A stretch of DNA of 31,343 nt, taken from assembly GCA_035758735.1 (NCBI GenBank), contig DASTWH010000077.1, forward strand, positions 1 to 31,343, written 5' to 3'. Shown here one piece after another: positions 884-27,614 of this stretch. Under the pieces are notes generated by a model. The model ran no database searches, was not told the DNA's origin, and saw nothing but the letters and a program-made list of their open reading frames with translations. This stretch comes from Gaiellaceae bacterium (GTDB lineage: Bacteria > Actinomycetota > Thermoleophilia > Gaiellales > Gaiellaceae). The position numbers and the translations under genes were made by a program. The first letter of the stretch is position 1; the number at the start of each line of letters is the position of its first letter.

Positions 884-1896
884 GCACGACGGCGCCGGCT
901 CAGAGCGTTCCCGACGTGGAGCTCGTCGGTGTGACGAGGCGCTTCGGCGCGGTGGCGGCCGTCGACGGCATCGACCTCGAGGTGCATCCGGGCGAGTTCC
1001 TCTCGCTCCTCGGCCCGTCGGGTTGTGGCAAGACGACGACACTTCGCCTCATCGCGGGCTTCGAGCAGCCCGACGAGGGTCAGGTCCGCATCGGGGGAGC
1101 CGACGTCTCGCGCGTGCCTCCGTACAAGCGCGACGTCAACACGGTGTTCCAGTCCTACGCGCTCTTTCCGCACCTGAGCGTGCTCGACAACGTCGCCTAC
1201 GGTCTGAAGCAGCGGCGGCTCGGCCGGACGGAACGGCGCGCTCGCGCCACGGAGATGCTGGCGCTCGTCAGGCTCGAGGGCCTGGGCGGCCGAAAGCCTC
1301 GGCAGCTCTCGGGCGGGCAGCAGCAGCGTGTCGCGCTCGCACGCGCGCTCGTGATGCATCCGCGGGTGCTCCTCCTCGACGAGCCGCTCGGCGCGCTCGA
1401 CCTCAAGGTGCGCAAGGAGCTGCAGATCGAGCTGAAGCGCATCCAGGAGGAGATCGGCATCACGTTCGTGTACGTCACGCACGACCAGGAGGAGGCGCTC
1501 GCGATGTCCGACCGCGTCGTCGTGATGAACGGCGGTCGCATCGAGCAGATCGGAGCGCCGCACGAGATCTACGACTCGCCGGCGACCGAGTGGATCGCCG
1601 GTTTCATCGGCGACACGAACTTCATCAGCGTGGACGGGGGGCAGGTTGCGGTCAGGCCGGAGCGCCTGCGAGTCCAGGCGGGCGGCAGCGGAGTGCCGGG
1701 CGTCGTCGCAACGACGATGGTGATCGGCCCGGCGGTGCAGTGCGTCGTCCGGCTCGACGACGGTCAGGAGGTGCTTGCGCGGGAACAGCGGTCAGGAGCA
1801 CGTGCGGGGATCGAGACCCTCGCAGAGGGCGAGCGCGTCTCGGTCACGTGGGCCGACGAGGAGGCCCTGGACTTCGATCAAGGAGGGAACGAATGA
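856..1896 (+). CDS. potA: Polyamine ABC transporter ATP-binding subunit (start uncertain)
   Basis: Walker A GPSGCGKTT, FQSYALFPH, signature [15 protein letters not shown], Walker B LLLDEP, C-terminal TOBE-like region. Confidence 0.92.
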   Translation: MDHQSAQLLSTTAPAQSVPDVELVGVTRRFGAVAAVDGIDLEVHPGEFLSLLGPSGCGKTTTLRLIAGFEQPDEGQVRIGGADVSRVPPYKRDVNTVFQSYALFPHLSVLDNVAYGLKQRRLGRTERRARATEMLALVRLEGLGGRKPRQLSGGQQQRVALARALVMHPRVLLLDEPLGALDLKVRKELQIELKRIQEEIGITFVYVTHDQEEALAMSDRVVVMNGGRIEQIGAPHEIYDSPATEWIAGFIGDTNFISVDGGQVAVRPERLRVQAGGSGVPGVVATTMVIGPAVQCVVRLDDGQEVLAREQRSGARAGIETLAEGERVSVTWADEEALDFDQGGNE

Positions 1897-2993: not shown

Positions 2994-3908
2994 TTGGCGT
3001 CGACTGAAGCCGACACGCCCGAGCACCGGCGCGGGAGCAGCCGCGCCGGTGCCGGTGGTCCGCGCTACCCGGGGTGGCTCGTCCTACCGGCCGTCGCCTG
3101 GTACGTCGTCTTCTTCCTCGTCCCGCTCGGCTTCATCGCGGCGACGAGCTTCGGTCAGGTCGAGGGTTTCTCCGACGTCGCCTACACGTGGACGCTCGAC
3201 AACTACCGCTACCTCTGGGACGACATCGCAGGCGAACTCCACCTGTATCGCGACATCTTCCTCGAGACGCTCAAGCTGTCGATCGTCGGAACGCTGTCGA
3301 CGCTCGTCGTCGGCTTCCCGCTCGCCTACTACATCGCCCGCTACGCGAAGCACAAGACACTTCTCCTCCTGCTCGTCATCGTCCCGTTCTGGACGAGCTT
3401 CCTCATCCGGGCCTATGCGTGGCTGATCGTCCTCGACCCCGAGTTCCCGCTGTTCCGGGCACTCGGACTGACGGGCTTCCTCGAGCGCCACGAGATCCTC
3501 TTCACGCCCAACGCGGTCTACATCGGGGTCGCCTACAACTACCTCCCCTTGATGGTCCTGCCGCTCTACGCGGCGCTCGAGCGCATCGACTGGTCGCTCG
3601 TCGACGCGGCGCAGGACCTCGGAGATCCGCCCTGGCGCGCCTTTCGGCGAATCACGCTCCCGCTTGCTCTTCCGGGGATCCTCGCGGGGTCGCTGCTCGT
3701 GTTCATCCCGCTGACGGGCGAGTACATCATCCCCGTCATCCTCGGGGGCAACAAGACGTTCTACGCGGGCAACCTCATCGCGCAGCAGTTCCTCGAGTCC
3801 GAGGACTGGCCCCTCGGCAGCGCGATCGCGATGGTCGTGATCGGCGCGCTGACCGTCGCCCTCGTGGTCTACGCCCGCGCGCTGGGCCGCCAGGAGCAGC
3901 ACTCGTGA
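2994..3908 (+). CDS. potB: Polyamine ABC transporter permease
   Basis: TTG start. IVPFWTSFLIRAYAW, YNYLPLMVLPLYAALERID and the EAA-like loop DAAQDLG. Confidence 0.92.
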   Translation: MASTEADTPEHRRGSSRAGAGGPRYPGWLVLPAVAWYVVFFLVPLGFIAATSFGQVEGFSDVAYTWTLDNYRYLWDDIAGELHLYRDIFLETLKLSIVGTLSTLVVGFPLAYYIARYAKHKTLLLLLVIVPFWTSFLIRAYAWLIVLDPEFPLFRALGLTGFLERHEILFTPNAVYIGVAYNYLPLMVLPLYAALERIDWSLVDAAQDLGDPPWRAFRRITLPLALPGILAGSLLVFIPLTGEYIIPVILGGNKTFYAGNLIAQQFLESEDWPLGSAIAMVVIGALTVALVVYARALGRQEQHS

Positions 3909-4726
3909 CGGGACGCCGACTCCTCGGTGGCTACACCATCCTCGCGTACGTCTTCCTGTACGCCCCGATCGCCGTCGTGGTCGTCTTCGCATTCAACGGT
4001 GGCCGGGACGTCCTCTACTGGCAGGGCTTCTCGACCAAGTGGTTCGAGATCGCGCTCGAGACTCCCGAGATCCGGACCGCGCTCAAGTTCAGCATCCTCA
4101 TCGCGCTCGGGAACGCGGTCGTCGCCTGCGTCCTCGGGACGATGCTCGCACTCGCGTTGCCCCGGATGCGCTCGTGGGTGCGCACACCGATCGACGCTCT
4201 CGCATACATGACGCTCGTCACCCCCGAGATCGTGTTCGCGATCGCAGCGCTCGTGTTCTTCGTCCAAGCCGGGAGCCGGCTGGGACTCGAGAGCCCGCTC
4301 GGGTGGCACACGATCCTGATCGCGCACGTGGTCTTCAACGCGTCCGTGGTCGCTCTGGTCGTCCGCGCCCGTTGGGTGTCGATGGGCCAGCACCTCGAGG
4401 AGGCGTCCTTCGATCTCGGGGCGGGGCCGCTCTCGACGTTCAGGCAGGTGACGCTGCCACGGCTCGCGCCCGCGATCCTCGCCGGCGGGCTGCTCGCCTT
4501 CACGTTCTCGTTCGACGACTTCATCACGTCGTTCTTCGTGACCGGCACGAACTCGGAGACGCTCCCGATCTACATCTGGGGCCAGCTGCGGTTCGGGGTC
4601 ACGCCTGCGATCAACGCGACTGCGGCGATGATGCTCGCTTTCACGCTGGTCGTCGTCGTCGTCGCGTACCTCGTGCTCCGACGTTCCGGGCAGGAGCATG
4701 AGACCGGTGGGCTACCCGGCGTGTGA
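3905..4726 (+). CDS. potC: Polyamine ABC transporter permease
   Basis: GTGA overlap with the potB stop. FLYAPIAVVVVFAFN, LEEASFDLGA, AFTFSFDDF, TLPIYIW. Confidence 0.92.
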   Translation: MTGRRLLGGYTILAYVFLYAPIAVVVVFAFNGGRDVLYWQGFSTKWFEIALETPEIRTALKFSILIALGNAVVACVLGTMLALALPRMRSWVRTPIDALAYMTLVTPEIVFAIAALVFFVQAGSRLGLESPLGWHTILIAHVVFNASVVALVVRARWVSMGQHLEEASFDLGAGPLSTFRQVTLPRLAPAILAGGLLAFTFSFDDFITSFFVTGTNSETLPIYIWGQLRFGVTPAINATAAMMLAFTLVVVVVAYLVLRRSGQEHETGGLPGV

Positions 4727-6443: not shown

Positions 6444-6977
6444 GTGGGTGAGCTCGAGCAGAGCCGGGTCCTCCGCGACGAGGCGGTGTTCGCAGACCCG
6501 CTCGTGATCGAGCTTCTCGGCGCTCGCCTGGTCGGCGTCCTCGCGACGTTCGACCCGGCGGGAGCCATCCATGCGATCCCGATGTGGTACGCGCCGCACG
6601 ACGGCGCTGTGTTGCTCGCGACGTCGGCGCGGAGCCGCAAGGTGAGGAATCTCGAGACGGATCCGAGGGCGACGCTCGTCGTGCACGACTCGCGTCCCGG
6701 CTACGAGGTGTGCGGCGCCTCGATCGTCGGCTCCGTCGAGGTCGTGCGGGCTCCCGCCGCGCAACCGCTCATCGATCGCGTGCAGGGGCGTTACGTCGCG
6801 ACGGAGGCGGCCGTCGACGATCCGACCGCACTGTCGTTCCTCGAGTCCGACGACGTCGCGCTCCGCTTCACGCCGACCTCGGCGTTCACGTGGGACCATC
6901 GCGCGAGCGAGGGCTCGCGGATCCTCCGGACGCACGGCTGGGCGCGACCGCTCGTGACGACCGACCCCCGTGCCTGA
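6444..6977 (+). CDS. Pyridoxamine 5'-phosphate oxidase-like (split-barrel FMN/F420-binding) protein
   Basis: GVLATFDPAGAIHAIPMWY...SRKVRNLETDPRATLVV matches the PPOX-class pattern. Confidence 0.8.
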   Translation: MGELEQSRVLRDEAVFADPLVIELLGARLVGVLATFDPAGAIHAIPMWYAPHDGAVLLATSARSRKVRNLETDPRATLVVHDSRPGYEVCGASIVGSVEVVRAPAAQPLIDRVQGRYVATEAAVDDPTALSFLESDDVALRFTPTSAFTWDHRASEGSRILRTHGWARPLVTTDPRA

Positions 6978-21596: not shown

Positions 21597-22655
21597 CTAC
21601 GCGAGGGCGTCGACGACGAGCGCCTGGAAGTGCGCGATGAGCTGTTCCGACTCCGGAAGCAGGCGTCCGTCCTCGATCAAACCCGCCCGCATGCCCGCCT
21701 GCACGCGCTCGATGAGGACGCGATCCTCTGCGCCGACCTGTGCGTCGAACGCCAGCGACTCCTCGATCCACGCCTCGTCGGCGTCCGCCGCGACGAAGTA
21801 GTCGAGGAAGCGATACGTCTTCTCCGGTGCGGTCGGGACGATCGGCCCGATCGAGAAGTTCGGGCGGCCTGGCATCACGTTGATCACCGTGCCCGGGAAG
21901 AGGAGGTGGAACTGGCCGCGCTCGACCTCCCCGTTCGGGTCGTACGCCCCGCGCGGCTCCGCCCGCGGTGGGCCGTGCTGCGTCATGCGGCCGCCGCTCG
22001 TCTCGAGCAGGTAGGAGTCGACGGAGACGTCCATCACCGCCGAGAACCCGGGGTGCGCGGTCGGGCAGTGGTAGCACTCGAGGAAGTTCTCGGCGGAGAC
22101 CTTCCAGTTGCACGCGAGCTCGGATTCGGAGCGCTGGAGGAACCGGAGGGCGTCGAGATCGATCCCCGCGTCCGCGATTCGCTCCGGCATGCCGTCGAGG
22201 AAGTCCTCGAGCGGAGCGGGCTCGGGATCGGGGTTGACGAACACAAGCGGTCCCCAGGTGCCGAGCTGGAGCTGTACGAGGCCGAGCTCGGGCGACTCGA
22301 TTCCGCCTTCCCGCTTGGAGCGCGGCGCCGTGATCAGGCGTCCGTCGAGCCCGTACGTCCACGCGTGGTACGGGCACTGGAGGGTCTCGCGCTGCCCTTG
22401 CCCGTCGCAGATGATCGAGCCTCTGTGCCGACAGACGTTGAGGAACGCTCGAAGCGTGTCCTCGCGGTCGCGCACCAGGACGACCGGGACGTCACCGACC
22501 CGCGTCGCCGCGAACGACCCCGGCTCGGAGACCTCGCCGGCGTGCCCGACGTACTGCCACGAGCGGCGAAAGATGCGTTCGCGCTCCAGCTCGAGCACCG
22601 CGGGATCGCTGTACCAGCCCCACGGAAGCGTGCGATTCGCGACGTCTGTGGCCAC
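21597..22655 (-). CDS. Rieske non-heme iron oxygenase alpha subunit (choline monooxygenase/CntA-like group)
   Basis: Rieske CRHRG...CPYHAW, mononuclear iron site ENFLECYHCPTAH, distal EDRVLIERVQAG. Confidence 0.9.
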   Translation of the reverse strand: MATDVANRTLPWGWYSDPAVLELERERIFRRSWQYVGHAGEVSEPGSFAATRVGDVPVVLVRDREDTLRAFLNVCRHRGSIICDGQGQRETLQCPYHAWTYGLDGRLITAPRSKREGGIESPELGLVQLQLGTWGPLVFVNPDPEPAPLEDFLDGMPERIADAGIDLDALRFLQRSESELACNWKVSAENFLECYHCPTAHPGFSAVMDVSVDSYLLETSGGRMTQHGPPRAEPRGAYDPNGEVERGQFHLLFPGTVINVMPGRPNFSIGPIVPTAPEKTYRFLDYFVAADADEAWIEESLAFDAQVGAEDRVLIERVQAGMRAGLIEDGRLLPESEQLIAHFQALVVDALA

Positions 22656-22704
22656 GGTTCGACTCTACCCGCGTCCCTTGCGGCCGGTCGGGCAGACTGC
22701 GCGG

Positions 22705-24279
22705 GTGGCTGACGCGCGGCGGATCGTGGAGGAGGCGGAAGCGCGTCTCGCCCCGCTGACCGAGGAGACCAACCTCGCGTGGTGGGCCTCGCAGGTCGAG
22801 GCGACGACGGAGAATGCGGCGCGGAGGGAGCGCGCGGAGATCGCATGGTCGGACGCGCTCGCCGACCGCGAGTACTTCGCAGCCGTCGAGCAGGCTCGTT
22901 CGAACGATGCTGGCGGAGACGTTCGGCGTCGTCTCGACCTGCTTCACGACGAGATGCTGAGACACCAGATCCCCCAGGGGCTGAGATCGAGGATCGTCGA
23001 GCTGGAGACGTCGGTCGACCTGCGCTACTCGCGCCATCGCGGCGTCGTCGGAGGCGAGGAGGTCGGTGACACGGAGATCAAGAGGGTCCTCCGCCGCAGC
23101 GACGATCTTCGCGAGCGGCGGGAGGCCTGGGAGGCGTCGAAGACCGTCGGTGCCGTCGTCGCCGACGACGTGCGCGAGCTCGCGCGGCTGCGCAACGACG
23201 CCGCACGTTCTCTCGGTCACCGCGACTGGTTCGCGCTGTCGCTGGCGACGGACGAGTTGGACGAGGAACGTCTCGTTGAGACGCTCGCCGAGGCGGATCG
23301 TGTGACCGCCGGGCCGTTCGCGCGCTGGAAGGGCACGCTCGACGAGCGCCTCGCGGCCCGGTTCGGCTGCCCGGTCGCCGAGCTGCGGCCGTGGCATCAC
23401 TCCGACCCGTTCTTCCAGGAGGTTCCGCCGGAAGGCGCGGTCGATCTCGACCCGTACTTCGACGGCGCGGACATCGTCGACCTCGCCCGGCGAACGATCG
23501 AAGGCGTCGGGCTCGACGCGCGGGGGATCATCGAGCGCAGTGACGTCTATCCCCGCGACGGGAAGAACCAGCACGCGTTCTGCATCGACATCGACCGCCG
23601 CGGCGACGTCCGCGTGCTCGCGAACCTCGTTACGACGCACGAGTCGGCCGACACGATGCTCCACGAGCTCGGCCACGGCGTCTACGACCTCGGCTTCCGG
23701 GACGACCTCCCGTGGCTACTGCGCTCGACCCACCTCGTGGCGACGGAGGCTTCGGCGATCCTCTTCGGCTCGCTCGCGGGGAGGCGGGAGTGGCTCGAGC
23801 GCGTCCTCGGCCTCGGGGCGCGCGAGGGAGCGGAGCTCGCGCCGAGGCTGCGCGGCGCTCGAGCCGTCGAGCTGCTCGTCTTCACCCGCTGGGTGCTCGT
23901 GATGAACGCCTTTGAGCGAGCGCTGTACGCGAACCCGGACGGGGACCTCGACGCTCTCTGGTGGGAGCTCGTCTCGCGCTACCAGCGAGTCACGCCTCCG
24001 GACGATCGCCGAGCCCCAGACTGGGCCGCGAAGATCCACATCGCGGTCTCACCCGTCTACTACCACACGTACCTGTACGGGGTGATCGTCGCGCTGCAGC
24101 TCGACGCCGCGCTCGAGAGCGAGGTAGGCGGCATCGTGGAGCGCTCCGAGGCGGGCGCGCTCCTGCGGGAGCGGCTCTTCCGGCCGGGGCAGTCGGTTCG
24201 CTGGGATCGGCTCGTCGAGGACGCGACCGGGTCGCCCCTCTCCGTCGAGTCGCTCGAACGCGCAGTCACGGCCGTATGA
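22705..24279 (+). CDS. Zinc metallopeptidase, M2 (ACE-like)/M3 gluzincin
   Basis: HELGH followed by Glu at +24 (TEASA) and PDWAAKIH...PVYYHTY; start at GTG 22705. Confidence 0.85.
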   Translation: MADARRIVEEAEARLAPLTEETNLAWWASQVEATTENAARRERAEIAWSDALADREYFAAVEQARSNDAGGDVRRRLDLLHDEMLRHQIPQGLRSRIVELETSVDLRYSRHRGVVGGEEVGDTEIKRVLRRSDDLRERREAWEASKTVGAVVADDVRELARLRNDAARSLGHRDWFALSLATDELDEERLVETLAEADRVTAGPFARWKGTLDERLAARFGCPVAELRPWHHSDPFFQEVPPEGAVDLDPYFDGADIVDLARRTIEGVGLDARGIIERSDVYPRDGKNQHAFCIDIDRRGDVRVLANLVTTHESADTMLHELGHGVYDLGFRDDLPWLLRSTHLVATEASAILFGSLAGRREWLERVLGLGAREGAELAPRLRGARAVELLVFTRWVLVMNAFERALYANPDGDLDALWWELVSRYQRVTPPDDRRAPDWAAKIHIAVSPVYYHTYLYGVIVALQLDAALESEVGGIVERSEAGALLRERLFRPGQSVRWDRLVEDATGSPLSVESLERAVTAV

Positions 24280-25439
24280 GCGAGCTCGCTCCGCTCGTCG
24301 GCGAGGAGACGACCGCCGAGGAGGAGCGCAAGACCAGCTACCTCGAGCTCTTCTTCGACCTCGTCTTCGTGTTCGCGTTCACGCAGGTCACATCGCTGAT
24401 CCTCGAGGACACGAGCCCGCAGGGGTTCGCGCGAGCCGCGCTCGTGCTCGCGATGGTCTGGTGGGCGTGGTCCGCCTACGCGTGGATGACGAACGCGATC
24501 GACGTCGAGAACAGCGTGACGCGGCTCATCATGTTCGCGGCCATGGCGGCCGGGTTCTTCATGGCTCTCGCCGTTCCCGACACGTTCCAGGACGAGGCTG
24601 CATGGTTCGCGGTCGCCTACTTCGTCGTGCGCGTCCTCAACTCGGCGCTGTACGCGTGGGGGGTGCGCGACGACCCGGCGGTGCTCAAATCGGTCGCGCG
24701 GCTCTCGCCCTGGTTCCTCGGCGCGGCGGTGGTCGCGCTCGTCGGCGGCTTCGTCGATCCCGACTACCGCGCGTGGTTCTGGGTCGCGTCGCTCACCATC
24801 GACGTCGTCGGGACGCTGACCGTCGCGAGATTGGAGTGGCACGTCTCGCCGTCGCACTTCGCCGAGCGCTTCGCGCTCATCGTGATCATCGCTCTCGGCG
24901 AGTCGATCGTGGCGATCGGCATCGGCACGTCACACCTCACGCGCGATGCGACGTACGCGGTCTCGGTCGTGGTTGCCTTCGCGGGCGTCGCGGCGCTCTG
25001 GTGGGCGTACTTCGACTTCACCGCAGTCGCTGCGGAGCGCTCGTTGCGACGTGCGTCGCAGCTCGCCCGCGGCCCCCTTGCGCGGGACGTCTTCACGTTC
25101 TTCCACTACCCGGTCGTGCTCGGGATCATCCTCTACGCCGTCGCGGCCAAGAAGACGCTCGAGCATCCGCTCGACCCCCTCTCCAAGGCGGGCCGCTGGG
25201 CGCTCGGGCTCGGGATCGCGCTCTTCCTCCTCGGGTTCGCGCTCATGCGCTTCCGTGTCATTCGCCGGATCGCATGGGAGCGCGTGGCCGCCGCCGCGGC
25301 CGTGCTCGTCATCGCAGTGCTGCTCGACGGGGCGGATGCGATCGTGACGCTCGGAGTCGTCATCGTCATCCTTCTCTTCTCGATCGCGCTCGAGACTGTC
25401 CGTCTGCGGGAGCTCCGTGCGACCTTGCGTGCCGGGTAG
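24276..25439 (+). CDS. ltrA: Low temperature requirement protein A family membrane protein
   Basis: ATGA overlap. TSYLELFFDLVFVFAFTQV and SHFAERFALIVIIALGESIV signatures. Confidence 0.92.
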   Translation: MSELAPLVGEETTAEEERKTSYLELFFDLVFVFAFTQVTSLILEDTSPQGFARAALVLAMVWWAWSAYAWMTNAIDVENSVTRLIMFAAMAAGFFMALAVPDTFQDEAAWFAVAYFVVRVLNSALYAWGVRDDPAVLKSVARLSPWFLGAAVVALVGGFVDPDYRAWFWVASLTIDVVGTLTVARLEWHVSPSHFAERFALIVIIALGESIVAIGIGTSHLTRDATYAVSVVVAFAGVAALWWAYFDFTAVAAERSLRRASQLARGPLARDVFTFFHYPVVLGIILYAVAAKKTLEHPLDPLSKAGRWALGLGIALFLLGFALMRFRVIRRIAWERVAAAAAVLVIAVLLDGADAIVTLGVVIVILLFSIALETVRLRELRATLRAG

Positions 25440-25450
25440 CCTCGACGCGC

Positions 25451-26242
25451 ATGAGCACCCAGGAGGAAAAGGGGCTCGCGTTCCGCGCATTGCACGAGGG
25501 CGAGCCGTTCGTCATCCCGAACCCGTGGGACACGGGCTCGGCCCGCGCGCTCGAGGCGCTCGGCTTCGAGGCGCTCGCGACGACGAGCTCGGGATTCGCG
25601 TTCACGCTCGGCCGGCTCGACGGGCAGGCGACCCTCGCCGAGGTCGTCGCGCACGTGTCCGAGCTCGATCGCGCGACGGGACTTCCCGTGTCCGTCGACC
25701 TCGAGAACGGCTACGCGACGGACGCGGCCGGCGTCGCGCTCGCCATCGCGCGCGTCGCTGAGGCCGGGGCGGTGGGCGGCTCGATCGAGGACTGGGATCC
25801 GGCGGGACGGTTGTACGACCGGGGCGAGTCGGTCGAGCGTCTGGCCGCCGCGGTCGAAGCGGTGCGCGGGCTCGGGTTCGCCTTCACGCTGACGGCTCGC
25901 GCCGAGAACCACATCCGTGGGAATCCCGACCTCGACGACACGATCGCGCGCCTGCGGGCGTTCGAGGAAGCAGGGGCCGACGTCCTCTACGCACCGGGCC
26001 TCCGGACGGTCGAGGAGATCCGCACCGTGTGCGACGCGGTCACGCGACCGGTCAACGTCCTCGCCTTCGGCGACCTCTCGTTGGCCGAGCTCGCCGAGGC
26101 CGGCGCGCAACGCGTGAGCGTCGGCGGTGGCCTGACCTGGGTCGCCATGGCTGCGTTCGCCGACGCTGCCCGCGCCATCCGCGAGGACGGTGATTTCTCG
26201 TCCCTCGGAGCCAGGGTTCCGCTGCGCGACTGGATCGGCTAG
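25451..26242 (+). CDS. Isocitrate lyase/PEP phosphomutase family protein
   Basis: PNPWDTGSAR, GFEALATTSSG, VDLENGY, GGSIED, LTARAEN, EAGADVLYAPG. Confidence 0.9.
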   Translation: MSTQEEKGLAFRALHEGEPFVIPNPWDTGSARALEALGFEALATTSSGFAFTLGRLDGQATLAEVVAHVSELDRATGLPVSVDLENGYATDAAGVALAIARVAEAGAVGGSIEDWDPAGRLYDRGESVERLAAAVEAVRGLGFAFTLTARAENHIRGNPDLDDTIARLRAFEEAGADVLYAPGLRTVEEIRTVCDAVTRPVNVLAFGDLSLAELAEAGAQRVSVGGGLTWVAMAAFADAARAIREDGDFSSLGARVPLRDWIG

Positions 26243-26562
26243 GGGAAGCGGCGCGGCGCCGGGCCGTCGGGCACGAGGCGTCCGAGCAAGCCGCGCCGGT
26301 TCGCGATCGCCCGGTACAGGGCATCCGGCAAGCGTCCGCGGACGCCGAGGTGGCTCCGCGACGAGCCGTCGCGGTGCGCCAGGCGCCAGCTGACGAAGCG
26401 CTCGTCCTCCGGCAACGGCGCAACGAGCGGGGCGGCCGCGGCGTCGTCGAGTGGGAGGACGGCCAGGCGTCCGCGACGGTCGAGGCGGACGACGGCACGC
26501 GCCGCCCAGCGGCAGAAGCGTCAGCCCGCGTCGTACAGGAGGACCGGCCGCCCGAGCGTCAT
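26239..26562 (-). CDS. DCC1-like (DUF393) thiol-disulfide oxidoreductase with in-frame TGA at the first motif Cys: candidate selenoprotein, or nonsense allele
   Basis: Manual translation: MTLGRPVLLYDAG*RFCRWAARAVVRLDRRGRLAVLPLDDAAAAPLVAPLPEDERFVSWRLAHRDGSSRSHLGVRGRLPDALYRAIANRRGLLGRLVPDGPAPRRFP-TAG. TGA at 26523-26521 is codon 14; ATGA-coupled to the upstream deacetylase gene. Confidence 0.8.
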
Positions 26563-27614
26563 CGCGCACCCTCGAACCCCTCGAGGGTCGCGCGGACGAG
26601 GGGGCCGATCGTCTCGAGCACGTAGCCGCCCTCCTGGACGAAGACCGTCGGGAGCCCCAGTCGCCCGAGCAGGCGTCCCGCCTCTCGGTACCCGGGCTCT
26701 GTGACGGCCAGGGGCGAGTTGGGATCACCTTCCGCGGCATCGACGCCCAACGCGACGACGAGTGCCTCCACTCCGTGCTCCTCGGCCGCCGCCGTCAGGC
26801 GGTCCAGTGCGGCGAGCCAGGTCGCGTCGCCAGACCCGGGAGGCAACGGGAGGTTGAGATTCGCGGCGCCGACCTCGTCGGCGAAGCCGAGGAAGTGGGG
26901 AAACCAGCCCGCTCCCGGGTCGACGTGCACCGACCCGGTGAGCACGTCGTCGCGCTCCCAGAAGATCGCCTGTGCGCCGTTGCCGTGGTGCGCGTCGACG
27001 TCGAGGAGCGCGACGCGGTTGTTCCCCCGGTCGCGGAGGTACTGCGCGGTGACGGCCGCGTTGTTCAGGTAGCACGAGCCGCCGAACGAAGACCGCGTGA
27101 CGTGGTGCCCGGGCGGACGGCAGCACGCGTACGCGACCGGCGCTCCGTCGAGGACGAGATCCGCCGCCGTGAGCGCCGCGTCGACGGCCCCGCGTGCGGC
27201 CCTCCACGTTCCCTCCGCGACGGCTGTCATCGTGTCGAAGCACCAGGCGCCGGTGCGCGCCGAGAGCGCGGCCGGCACGTGCGGCTCGACCCCCGCGAGG
27301 AGACCGGGCGTGGGGAAGATGTAGCCGATGACGTCCCGCTGACCCGACTCGGCCGGCATGCCGCCGGTGCTCCAGGTCTCCCACGCGGTGCGCAGGAACT
27401 CGACGAGCCCGGGGTCATGGACGGCGAGGAGCGCGTCGTCGGGATGCGGCGTCGCGACGACGACCTCCGCGCCTGCGTCCTCGAGCGCTGCGCGGATACG
27501 GTCTGCCCGCGCGGGCAGCTCGTCGCCATCGATCGGCATTCCGACCCAGACTGCGCGCTCCGGCGCGTGAAGGCGGTGGGCCTCGCTCCACGTGACCGGC
27601 ATCGCGAGCGCCAC
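26559..27614 (-). CDS. Histone deacetylase-family amidohydrolase, acetylpolyamine amidohydrolase-like
   Basis: CRPPGHH, GGSCYLNNAA, LDVDAHHGNG, GVDAAEGDP, QEGGY (catalytic Tyr kept), N-terminal ELPARADRI. Alternative ATG at 27602. Confidence 0.9.
   Translation of the reverse strand: MALAMPVTWSEAHRLHAPERAVWVGMPIDGDELPARADRIRAALEDAGAEVVVATPHPDDALLAVHDPGLVEFLRTAWETWSTGGMPAESGQRDVIGYIFPTPGLLAGVEPHVPAALSARTGAWCFDTMTAVAEGTWRAARGAVDAALTAADLVLDGAPVAYACCRPPGHHVTRSSFGGSCYLNNAAVTAQYLRDRGNNRVALLDVDAHHGNGAQAIFWERDDVLTGSVHVDPGAGWFPHFLGFADEVGAANLNLPLPPGSGDATWLAALDRLTAAAEEHGVEALVVALGVDAAEGDPNSPLAVTEPGYREAGRLLGRLGLPTVFVQEGGYVLETIGPLVRATLEGFEGAR

Follow-up and report, generated by a model that had tools for sequence, protein, structure and literature searches.

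The 31,343-nucleotide (nt) stretch of DNA analyzed here (the window; contig DASTWH010000077.1 of GenBank assembly GCA_035758735.1, from a soil Gaiellaceae bacterium of the actinobacterial order Gaiellales) carries on its minus strand, between a histone-deacetylase-family gene and a convergent phosphoenolpyruvate (PEP)-mutase/isocitrate-lyase-family gene, a frame of 108 codons, stop included, whose fourteenth codon is TGA. From 26562 to 26239 the frame reads MTLGRPVLLYDAG(TGA)RFCRWAAR...LVPDGPAPRRFP*, continuing after the TGA as RFCRWAARAVVRLDRRGRL...LVPDGPAPRRFP and closing with a TAG. The TGA stands at the first Cys of a DxxCxxC motif near the N-terminus, which becomes D11-A-G-U14-R-F-C17 if U is selenocysteine (Sec); D11 and C17 are invariant among relatives, and every relative compared has either Cys or TGA at position 14. 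An earlier reading of these letters, made with no database searches (the sequence-only reading), had picked out this frame as a candidate UxxC selenoprotein of the DCC1/DUF393 family. Translation and coordinates confirm the frame and both of the overlaps it described, in which the ATG (26562-26560) shares ATGA with the TGA stop of the deacetylase gene (26561-26559) and the TAG (26241-26239) shares CTAG with the PEP-mutase TAG (26240-26242), and recomputation returned exactly its hand count of 85 G/C-ending codons among the 93 after the TGA. The evidence below indicates that this is very probably an intact gene for a Sec-containing DCC1-like (DUF393, PF04134) oxidoreductase of predicted thioredoxin fold, in which Sec is inserted at codon 14 with the help of SelB and a selenocysteine insertion sequence (SECIS).

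The TGA recurs, at one codon, across many genomes. A six-frame search that read through stops recovered the gene from 74 of 401 genomes of the same order, many of them with one TGA inside the match. In 30 loci extracted from 30 species for codon comparison, the first Cys position of DxxCxxC is occupied by TGA in 15 (the window and 14 other species genomes) and by TGC or TGT in the remaining 15; all 30 frames stay open and conserved through a common ...LVPDGPAPRR(F/Y)P end, and conservation flanks the UGA on both sides (RPVLLYD before it, RFCR(F/W)AAR...LVPDGPAPRR(F/Y)P after it). Enlarging the set with metagenome contigs gave 22 distinct TGA sequences, from Gaiellales and metagenomes, and 19 with TGC or TGT at this one aligned codon. 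Close relatives are therefore not all Cys forms, and the coexistence of the two is the pairing expected of selenoproteins; homologues invariably have Cys at the aligned position, and none has Trp or Gly. Across 1200 nt, an independent metagenome contig (L047, from Ga0114129) shares 99.25% identity with the window, the TGA included. No other letter appears at 26521-26523 in contigs from four independent runs, drawn from soil metagenomes of three other studies and one RNA-type library. Beyond the order, 301 genomes from across the phylum, a sample that includes one unpublished genome (G409) whose sequence was not used, were searched with the Pfam model. Additional DCC1-like genes, each holding one TGA, turned up in three other actinobacterial families. 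In five of these distant genes the TGA falls once more on the first Cys codon of DxxCxxC, and their read-through proteins match PF04134 over its full length at 54 to 62 bits.

Sec and Cys forms interleave in a maximum-likelihood tree that needs about six changes between them, at least two of which are forced by strongly supported branches. The window gene sits in a 10-member short-form clade of eight Sec and two Cys forms (support 97/98). Since this short clade also holds Cys forms, the roughly 20 residues that its members lack are a character of the clade and not a sign of decay. Its two Cys members, L005 and L007, differ in the codons that follow the motif: L007 retains most of the hairpin codons of the Sec type described below (GCG GCA), whereas L005 is without them (GCC GCT). 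Such a pattern would be expected of recent Sec-to-Cys reversions caught at different stages of SECIS decay.

The DCC1/DUF393 identity proposed earlier holds: with Cys in place of the TGA, the protein matches PF04134 (DCC1-like) with 31.8 bits (cut-off 27.8; E 3.7e-7), over the N-terminal profile positions 1-40 only, while long-form relatives of the same clade (such as P0072) and the distant TGA forms give full-length matches at 41 to 62 bits. Every one of the 21 residues that do not vary in a family alignment of 37 sequences (A3) is retained. Public protein searches returned homologues 65 to 85% identical, comprising full-length Cys forms of 107 to 140 residues and truncated calls. The sequence-only reading was right that the protein is about 20 residues shorter than usual; the short form (107 to 108 residues) belongs to a natural clade with Cys as well as Sec members, the missing residues lie between strand 4 and the last helix, and the Cys-form relatives P0003, P0013, and P0029 have the same short length. 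An AlphaFold2 (AF2) model (predicted local distance difference test score [pLDDT] 77, predicted template modeling score [pTM] 0.67) shows a complete, thioredoxin-like b1-a1-b2-a2-b3-b4-a3 topology and places residue 14 where strand 1 gives way to helix 1, at the N-terminus of the helix. Thioredoxin-fold CxxC proteins classically have their nucleophilic Cys at that junction. The top Foldseek matches in the PDB are weak (E 0.06 to 0.2, template modeling score about 0.4) and nearly all of the thioredoxin superfamily (glutathione S-transferase N-domain, glutaredoxin, Mrx1, DsbE/F, and thioredoxin); a PDB sequence search found no solved relative. The window product is a predicted thiol-disulfide oxidoreductase of the DCC1-like/DUF393 family.

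These comparisons also bear on the first of three alternatives, namely that the UGA simply terminates and that the functional product is a downstream frame of 58 to 83 residues, started at an internal GTG or TTG and devoid of the redox motif. Public annotation is written as if this were so: dozens of clusters of 73- to 83-residue "hypothetical proteins" begin just past the motif, and the window's own gene call is a 58-residue fragment. A downstream start would, however, have no need of the 13 codons before the TGA or of the RFCR(F/W)AAR after it, both of which are conserved in frame, as protein sequence, in all Sec forms; the internal start is itself not conserved, being TTG at codon 50 here and GTG at codon 25 in others, and the AF2 model indicates that the truncated piece would be without strand 1 and most of helix 1. 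We therefore regard termination at the UGA as very improbable. The gene is almost certainly a genuine, mis-annotated selenoprotein gene, of a Sec branch that gene callers truncate.

The genome that carries the gene also encodes components of a dedicated Sec system. The assembly is a metagenome-assembled genome (MAG) of 435 contigs, 83.9% complete with 4.5% contamination, and selA, selB, and the gene for tRNA-Sec are clustered on one of them, of 13.4 kb (C368). On another (C314) lies a formate dehydrogenase alpha-type gene (FdhA) with an in-frame TGA, followed by a hairpin whose GGUC apical loop lies at about nt 27-30; this is a predicted second, classical selenoprotein gene of the genome. SelA was found in 343 of the 401 genomes of the order and in 209 of the 233 of high quality (a tally that includes the unpublished genomes G368 and G060, whose sequences were not used), and by this measure Sec use seems to be nearly universal in this order of soil actinobacteria. 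Nearly all genomes of the order carry SelA, and its presence does not separate Sec-form from Cys-form genomes.

Bacterial SECIS elements sit immediately 3' of the UGA (PMC9312934). Mean third-position entropy over codons +1 to +11 after the recoded codon is 0.54 bits in the 22 Sec forms against 1.13 in the 19 Cys forms; over codons +12 to +44 there is no drop (1.30 in Sec against 1.25 in Cys forms). With nucleotides numbered from the U of the UGA, the hairpin that we favor (model A) pairs nt 2-6 with 26-30 in its lower stem and nt 10-15 with 19-24 in its upper stem (26514-26500), the latter joining the Cys17-Arg18 codons UGCCGC to the Ala-Ala codons GCGGCG beneath an apical loop at nt 16-18 that is UGG here and UUC in the Phe forms. 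The two Ala codons are GCG-GCG (or GUG/UCG-GCG) in 22 of 22 Sec forms, while Cys forms use GCC, GCU, GCA, ACC, and others; G at nt 21 occurs in 22/22 Sec and 8/19 Cys forms (p=2.4e-5) and G at nt 24 in 22/22 and 11/19 (p=8e-4). Common descent by itself does not explain this pattern, given that Sec forms occur scattered across the tree, although the sequences are not independent of one another. RNAalifold returns a consensus hairpin for the Sec set only (-9.7, against 0.0 for the Cys set); model A is paired in 91.5% of cells in Sec forms and 63.6% in Cys forms, and seven substitutions preserve its pairing through G-U wobble. The predicted minimum free energy of nt 1-33 is -14.4 kcal/mol in Sec and -10.6 kcal/mol in Cys forms (p=0.004), a gap that two downstream control segments do not show. 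Each of the five distant TGA forms folds a hairpin within about 40 nt of its UGA. An RNA element specific to Sec forms is present after the UGA; we infer its exact SECIS structure and its binding by SelB.

The second alternative, that near-cognate decoding or a lineage-wide change of code puts Trp, Cys, or Gly at the UGA, draws on the fact that any read-through would keep the frame under selection, and that selenium in this protein is a prediction. The local constraint at the RNA level is, however, a prediction of SelB-dependent recoding; the genome has a dedicated Sec system and a second selenoprotein gene of classic type; homologues never place Trp or Gly at the aligned position; and within the operon itself TGA acts as a normal stop codon, ending the upstream deacetylase gene, so that a lineage-wide change of code is not the explanation. 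Read-through by any of these routes is, in our estimation, slightly less probable again than termination.

Pairwise dN/dS (NG86) on the 93 codons after the TGA is 0.2 to 0.36 in comparisons between the short clade's other Sec forms and 0.28 to 0.54 for the window copy, and the values of the Sec forms fall in the same range as those of Sec-Cys pairs; these codons are under purifying selection, with no sign of relaxation. The counter-case that the sequence-only reading itself had raised, in which a TGC-to-TGA change killed the gene or arose as an assembly or sequencing error and the frame is decaying, is the least probable of the three and is rejected: although a single substitution suffices and the protein is shorter than typical members of PF04134 with a match to the first 40 profile positions only, the TGA is found in 22 distinct sequences of several clades and in five distant family members, independent contigs agree on it, dN/dS lies below 1, every invariant residue is retained, and the short length is common to Cys-form relatives. 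Each of these three alternatives is contradicted by data, and even in sum they are very improbable.

Several points nonetheless weigh against a Sec-containing product. Sec insertion and the redox chemistry and substrate of the product are predictions made from sequence. The Sec genes expected from the earlier proposal are present as far as selA, selB, and tRNA-Sec are concerned, but selD was not found in the MAG, where the best candidate is a 33-bit AIR-synthase-type match below the cut-off. Ten of 12 genomes of the same genus do have selD, and in four genomes (G147, G079, G235, and G067, the first with a TGA-form gene) it shares a contig with the DCC gene, at a distance of 38 to 55 kb; as this spacing reaches just past the ends of a 31-kb contig, incomplete assembly is the likely reason for its absence. 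SelA, for its part, has no match in the TGA-form genome G387 and apparently none in G302. With regard to the hairpin, the Sec set contains no double compensatory changes for model A, only conservation and wobble changes, and its exact pairing is for that reason something that we infer. An alternative hairpin B (nt 19-23/31-35) fits the Sec forms equally well, with pairing in 100% of Sec cells; since 80% of Cys cells pair as well, and a shift of 3 nt still leaves 96% paired, it is indistinguishable from codon periodicity. The single-sequence fold after the UGA is no better than that of shuffled sequences (z = -0.27) in a context of 70% GC, and an Rfam search (E up to 10) gave only chance-level matches to microRNAs and small RNAs. 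The apical loop at nt 16-18 is also nearer to the UGA than that of the genome's own FdhA element. E. coli-type SECIS loops typically carry a G or GU, which the UUC loop of the Phe forms does not.

The most likely mechanism, with SelB- and SECIS-dependent Sec insertion as its very probable core, is the following. The DCC gene would be transcribed with the upstream deacetylase-family gene and translationally coupled to it. When the ribosome reaches the UGA at codon 14, the hairpin in the next 30 nt or so, made largely of the codons of the CxxC motif and of the Ala-Ala-Arg that follows, would recruit SelB.GTP.Sec-tRNA(Sec), and Sec would be inserted in place of termination. The product would carry a U-x-x-C redox center at the N-terminus of helix 1, where Sec14 may act as the nucleophile that attacks a substrate disulfide (or another oxidized species) and Cys17 may resolve the intermediate, the enzyme cycling through a selenenylsulfide.

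The neighborhood of the gene is partly conserved (Table 1). The deacetylase-family gene is the immediate upstream neighbor in six Cys-form loci and sits upstream across a gap of about 0.7 kb in three Sec-form loci, and a PEP-mutase-family gene is kept downstream in six other short-form Sec loci. The recurrent pairing of deacetylase and DCC genes hints that they may serve a shared process; we do not claim that the two proteins bind. A cupin-domain open reading frame (ORF; PF07883, 27618-28301, minus strand) ends 4 nt before the start of the deacetylase gene (27614) on the same strand, which makes an operon running from cupin through deacetylase to Sec-DCC possible. A 151-nt contig of run X15, from a library labeled "metagenomic RNA-Seq," covers 26481-26631, with the TGA and the gene junction, with zero differences; it may derive from transcript or from carried-over DNA. 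On the plus strand, the PEP-mutase domain is confined to residues 341-573 of a 593-codon ORF (24461-26242), the first 340 or so codons of which overlap, in another frame, a 492-codon ORF (23961-25439) with a strong LtrA match (PF06772). Given this domain extent and this overlap, the PEP-mutase gene probably starts near 25480, the long ORF being an artifact of high GC. A further plus-strand ORF of 723 codons (22108-24279) has metallopeptidase matches of the M2/M3/M32 type in its C-terminal third only. Its last 320 nt or so also lie within the LtrA ORF, and the start of one or the other has probably been placed wrongly.

Table 1. Features of the candidate selenoprotein locus and of the Sec system of the source genome. 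Positions are those of the window unless a contig is named.
Feature	Position	Strand	Basis or remark
DCC1-like coding sequence, predicted Sec form, complete, short-form	26239..26562	-	107 codons plus TAG; translation, PF04134, homologues, alignment, AF2 model
In-frame UGA, codon 14, at the N-terminal redox Cys of CxxC	26521..26523	-	Aligned TGA/TGC/TGT homologues; Sec predicted
TGC codon of Cys17, putative resolving Cys of UxxC	26512..26514	-	Invariant in alignment A3 and in all 30 loci
SECIS-like hairpin, model A	26494..26522	-	RNAalifold consensus, pairing counts, folding energy
Sec-form-specific synonymous-constraint zone, codons +1 to +11	26488..26520	-	Third-position entropy
Histone-deacetylase-family gene (PF00850), upstream of the DCC gene	26559..27614	-	Pfam 205 bits; probable operon partner
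PEP-mutase/isocitrate-lyase-family gene, convergent	25481..26242	+	PF13714 232 bits, residues 341-573 of ORF 24461-26242
selA	C368 ~3521-4558		430 bits
selB wing domain	C368 ~6579-6710		SECIS-binding wing-3 domain, 57 bits
tRNA-Sec (selC)	C368 12896-12988	complement	Anticodon tca
Formate dehydrogenase alpha-type gene (FdhA), locus L040	C314, TGA at + coordinates 1478-1480	-	In-frame TGA, ...SVHSCEST-U-HAPT...

We advance only tentatively, as a possibility that we hold with some doubt, the broader proposition that Sec-DCC1-like proteins make up a selenoprotein family, so far uncatalogued, that is widespread in soil Actinomycetota and common in Gaiellales, and that the SECIS of its Gaiellaceae branch is unusually compact, made of the codons of the redox motif, with its loop only 16 to 18 nt from the UGA. 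If such a compact element is real, the SelB of this lineage would accept a shorter spacing and another loop than the fdhF-type element of the same genome, and the hairpin would offer a test case for the variability of bacterial SECIS elements. A Sec-containing DCC1-like protein would add the Pfam family PF04134 to the proteins that use selenium, would correct a systematic mis-annotation in which dozens of public fragments of 58 to 83 residues are without an active site, and would mark the abundant, uncultured soil Actinomycetota of the Gaiellales as regular users of Sec. Sec and Cys orthologues interleaved at one locus would also provide a natural test bed for the choice of Sec over Cys. The chemistry will not surprise a specialist; the value lies in the family and how abundant it is among soil Actinomycetota, in the many switches between Sec and Cys, and in a hairpin built from active-site codons.

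Thioredoxin-fold proteins in which Sec takes the place of the leading Cys of CxxC, and which have Cys homologues alongside them, are of a well-known kind, but the family PF04134 appears not yet to have been catalogued as selenium-using. The sequence-only reading did not place DCC proteins among the classical bacterial selenoproteins, and the catalogues agree: PF04134, DCC, and DUF393 are absent from the 119 prokaryotic selenoprotein families and subfamilies listed with domain identifiers in Table 1 of a May 2026 review (PMC13188914). No DCC selenoprotein is mentioned in GOS 2008, Peng 2016, the 2022 review, or deep-Sep 2025, nor in the main text of BSepDB 2026. Literature searches pairing selenoprotein with DUF393, YuxK, or PF04134 returned nothing relevant, which is not proof of absence from all literature. 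Among NCBIfam models, none, including those for selenoproteins, matches the window protein, its Cys relatives, or the distant TGA forms.

Three known systems frame the comparison. The Cys-type DCC1-like/DUF393 proteins (such as YuxK and Arabidopsis DCC1) share with the window protein the Pfam family, the position of DxxCxxC, and the size class, and Cys positional orthologues adjoin the same deacetylase gene. The window gene differs from them in that its first redox Cys codon is a UGA, followed by an RNA constraint and a hairpin that the Cys forms lack, and in that this copy belongs to the short subclade with about 20 fewer residues between strand 4 and the last helix. The putative recoding element resembles the fdhF-type SECIS of E. 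coli, and that of the genome's own FdhA, in being a stem-loop within coding sequence that starts at or next to the UGA; whereas the FdhA element presents GGUC at about nt 27-30, the DCC element has a loop of 3 to 5 nt (UGG/UUC) at nt 16-18, consists of redox-motif codons, and is a putative SelB-binding site. A parallel in kind is offered by the catalogued UxxC selenoproteins of thioredoxin fold, which comprise Sec-thioredoxin (PF00085), Sec-glutaredoxin (PF00462), the DsbA-like proteins (PF01323), and the Prx-like thiol:disulfide oxidoreductases (PF00578) (Table 1 of PMC13188914). Like these, the window gene would place Sec at the N-terminal Cys of CxxC, at the start of helix 1 in a thioredoxin-like fold, it coexists with Cys homologues, and its predicted recoding signal lies immediately 3' of the UGA; unlike these, it belongs to a different family, PF04134.

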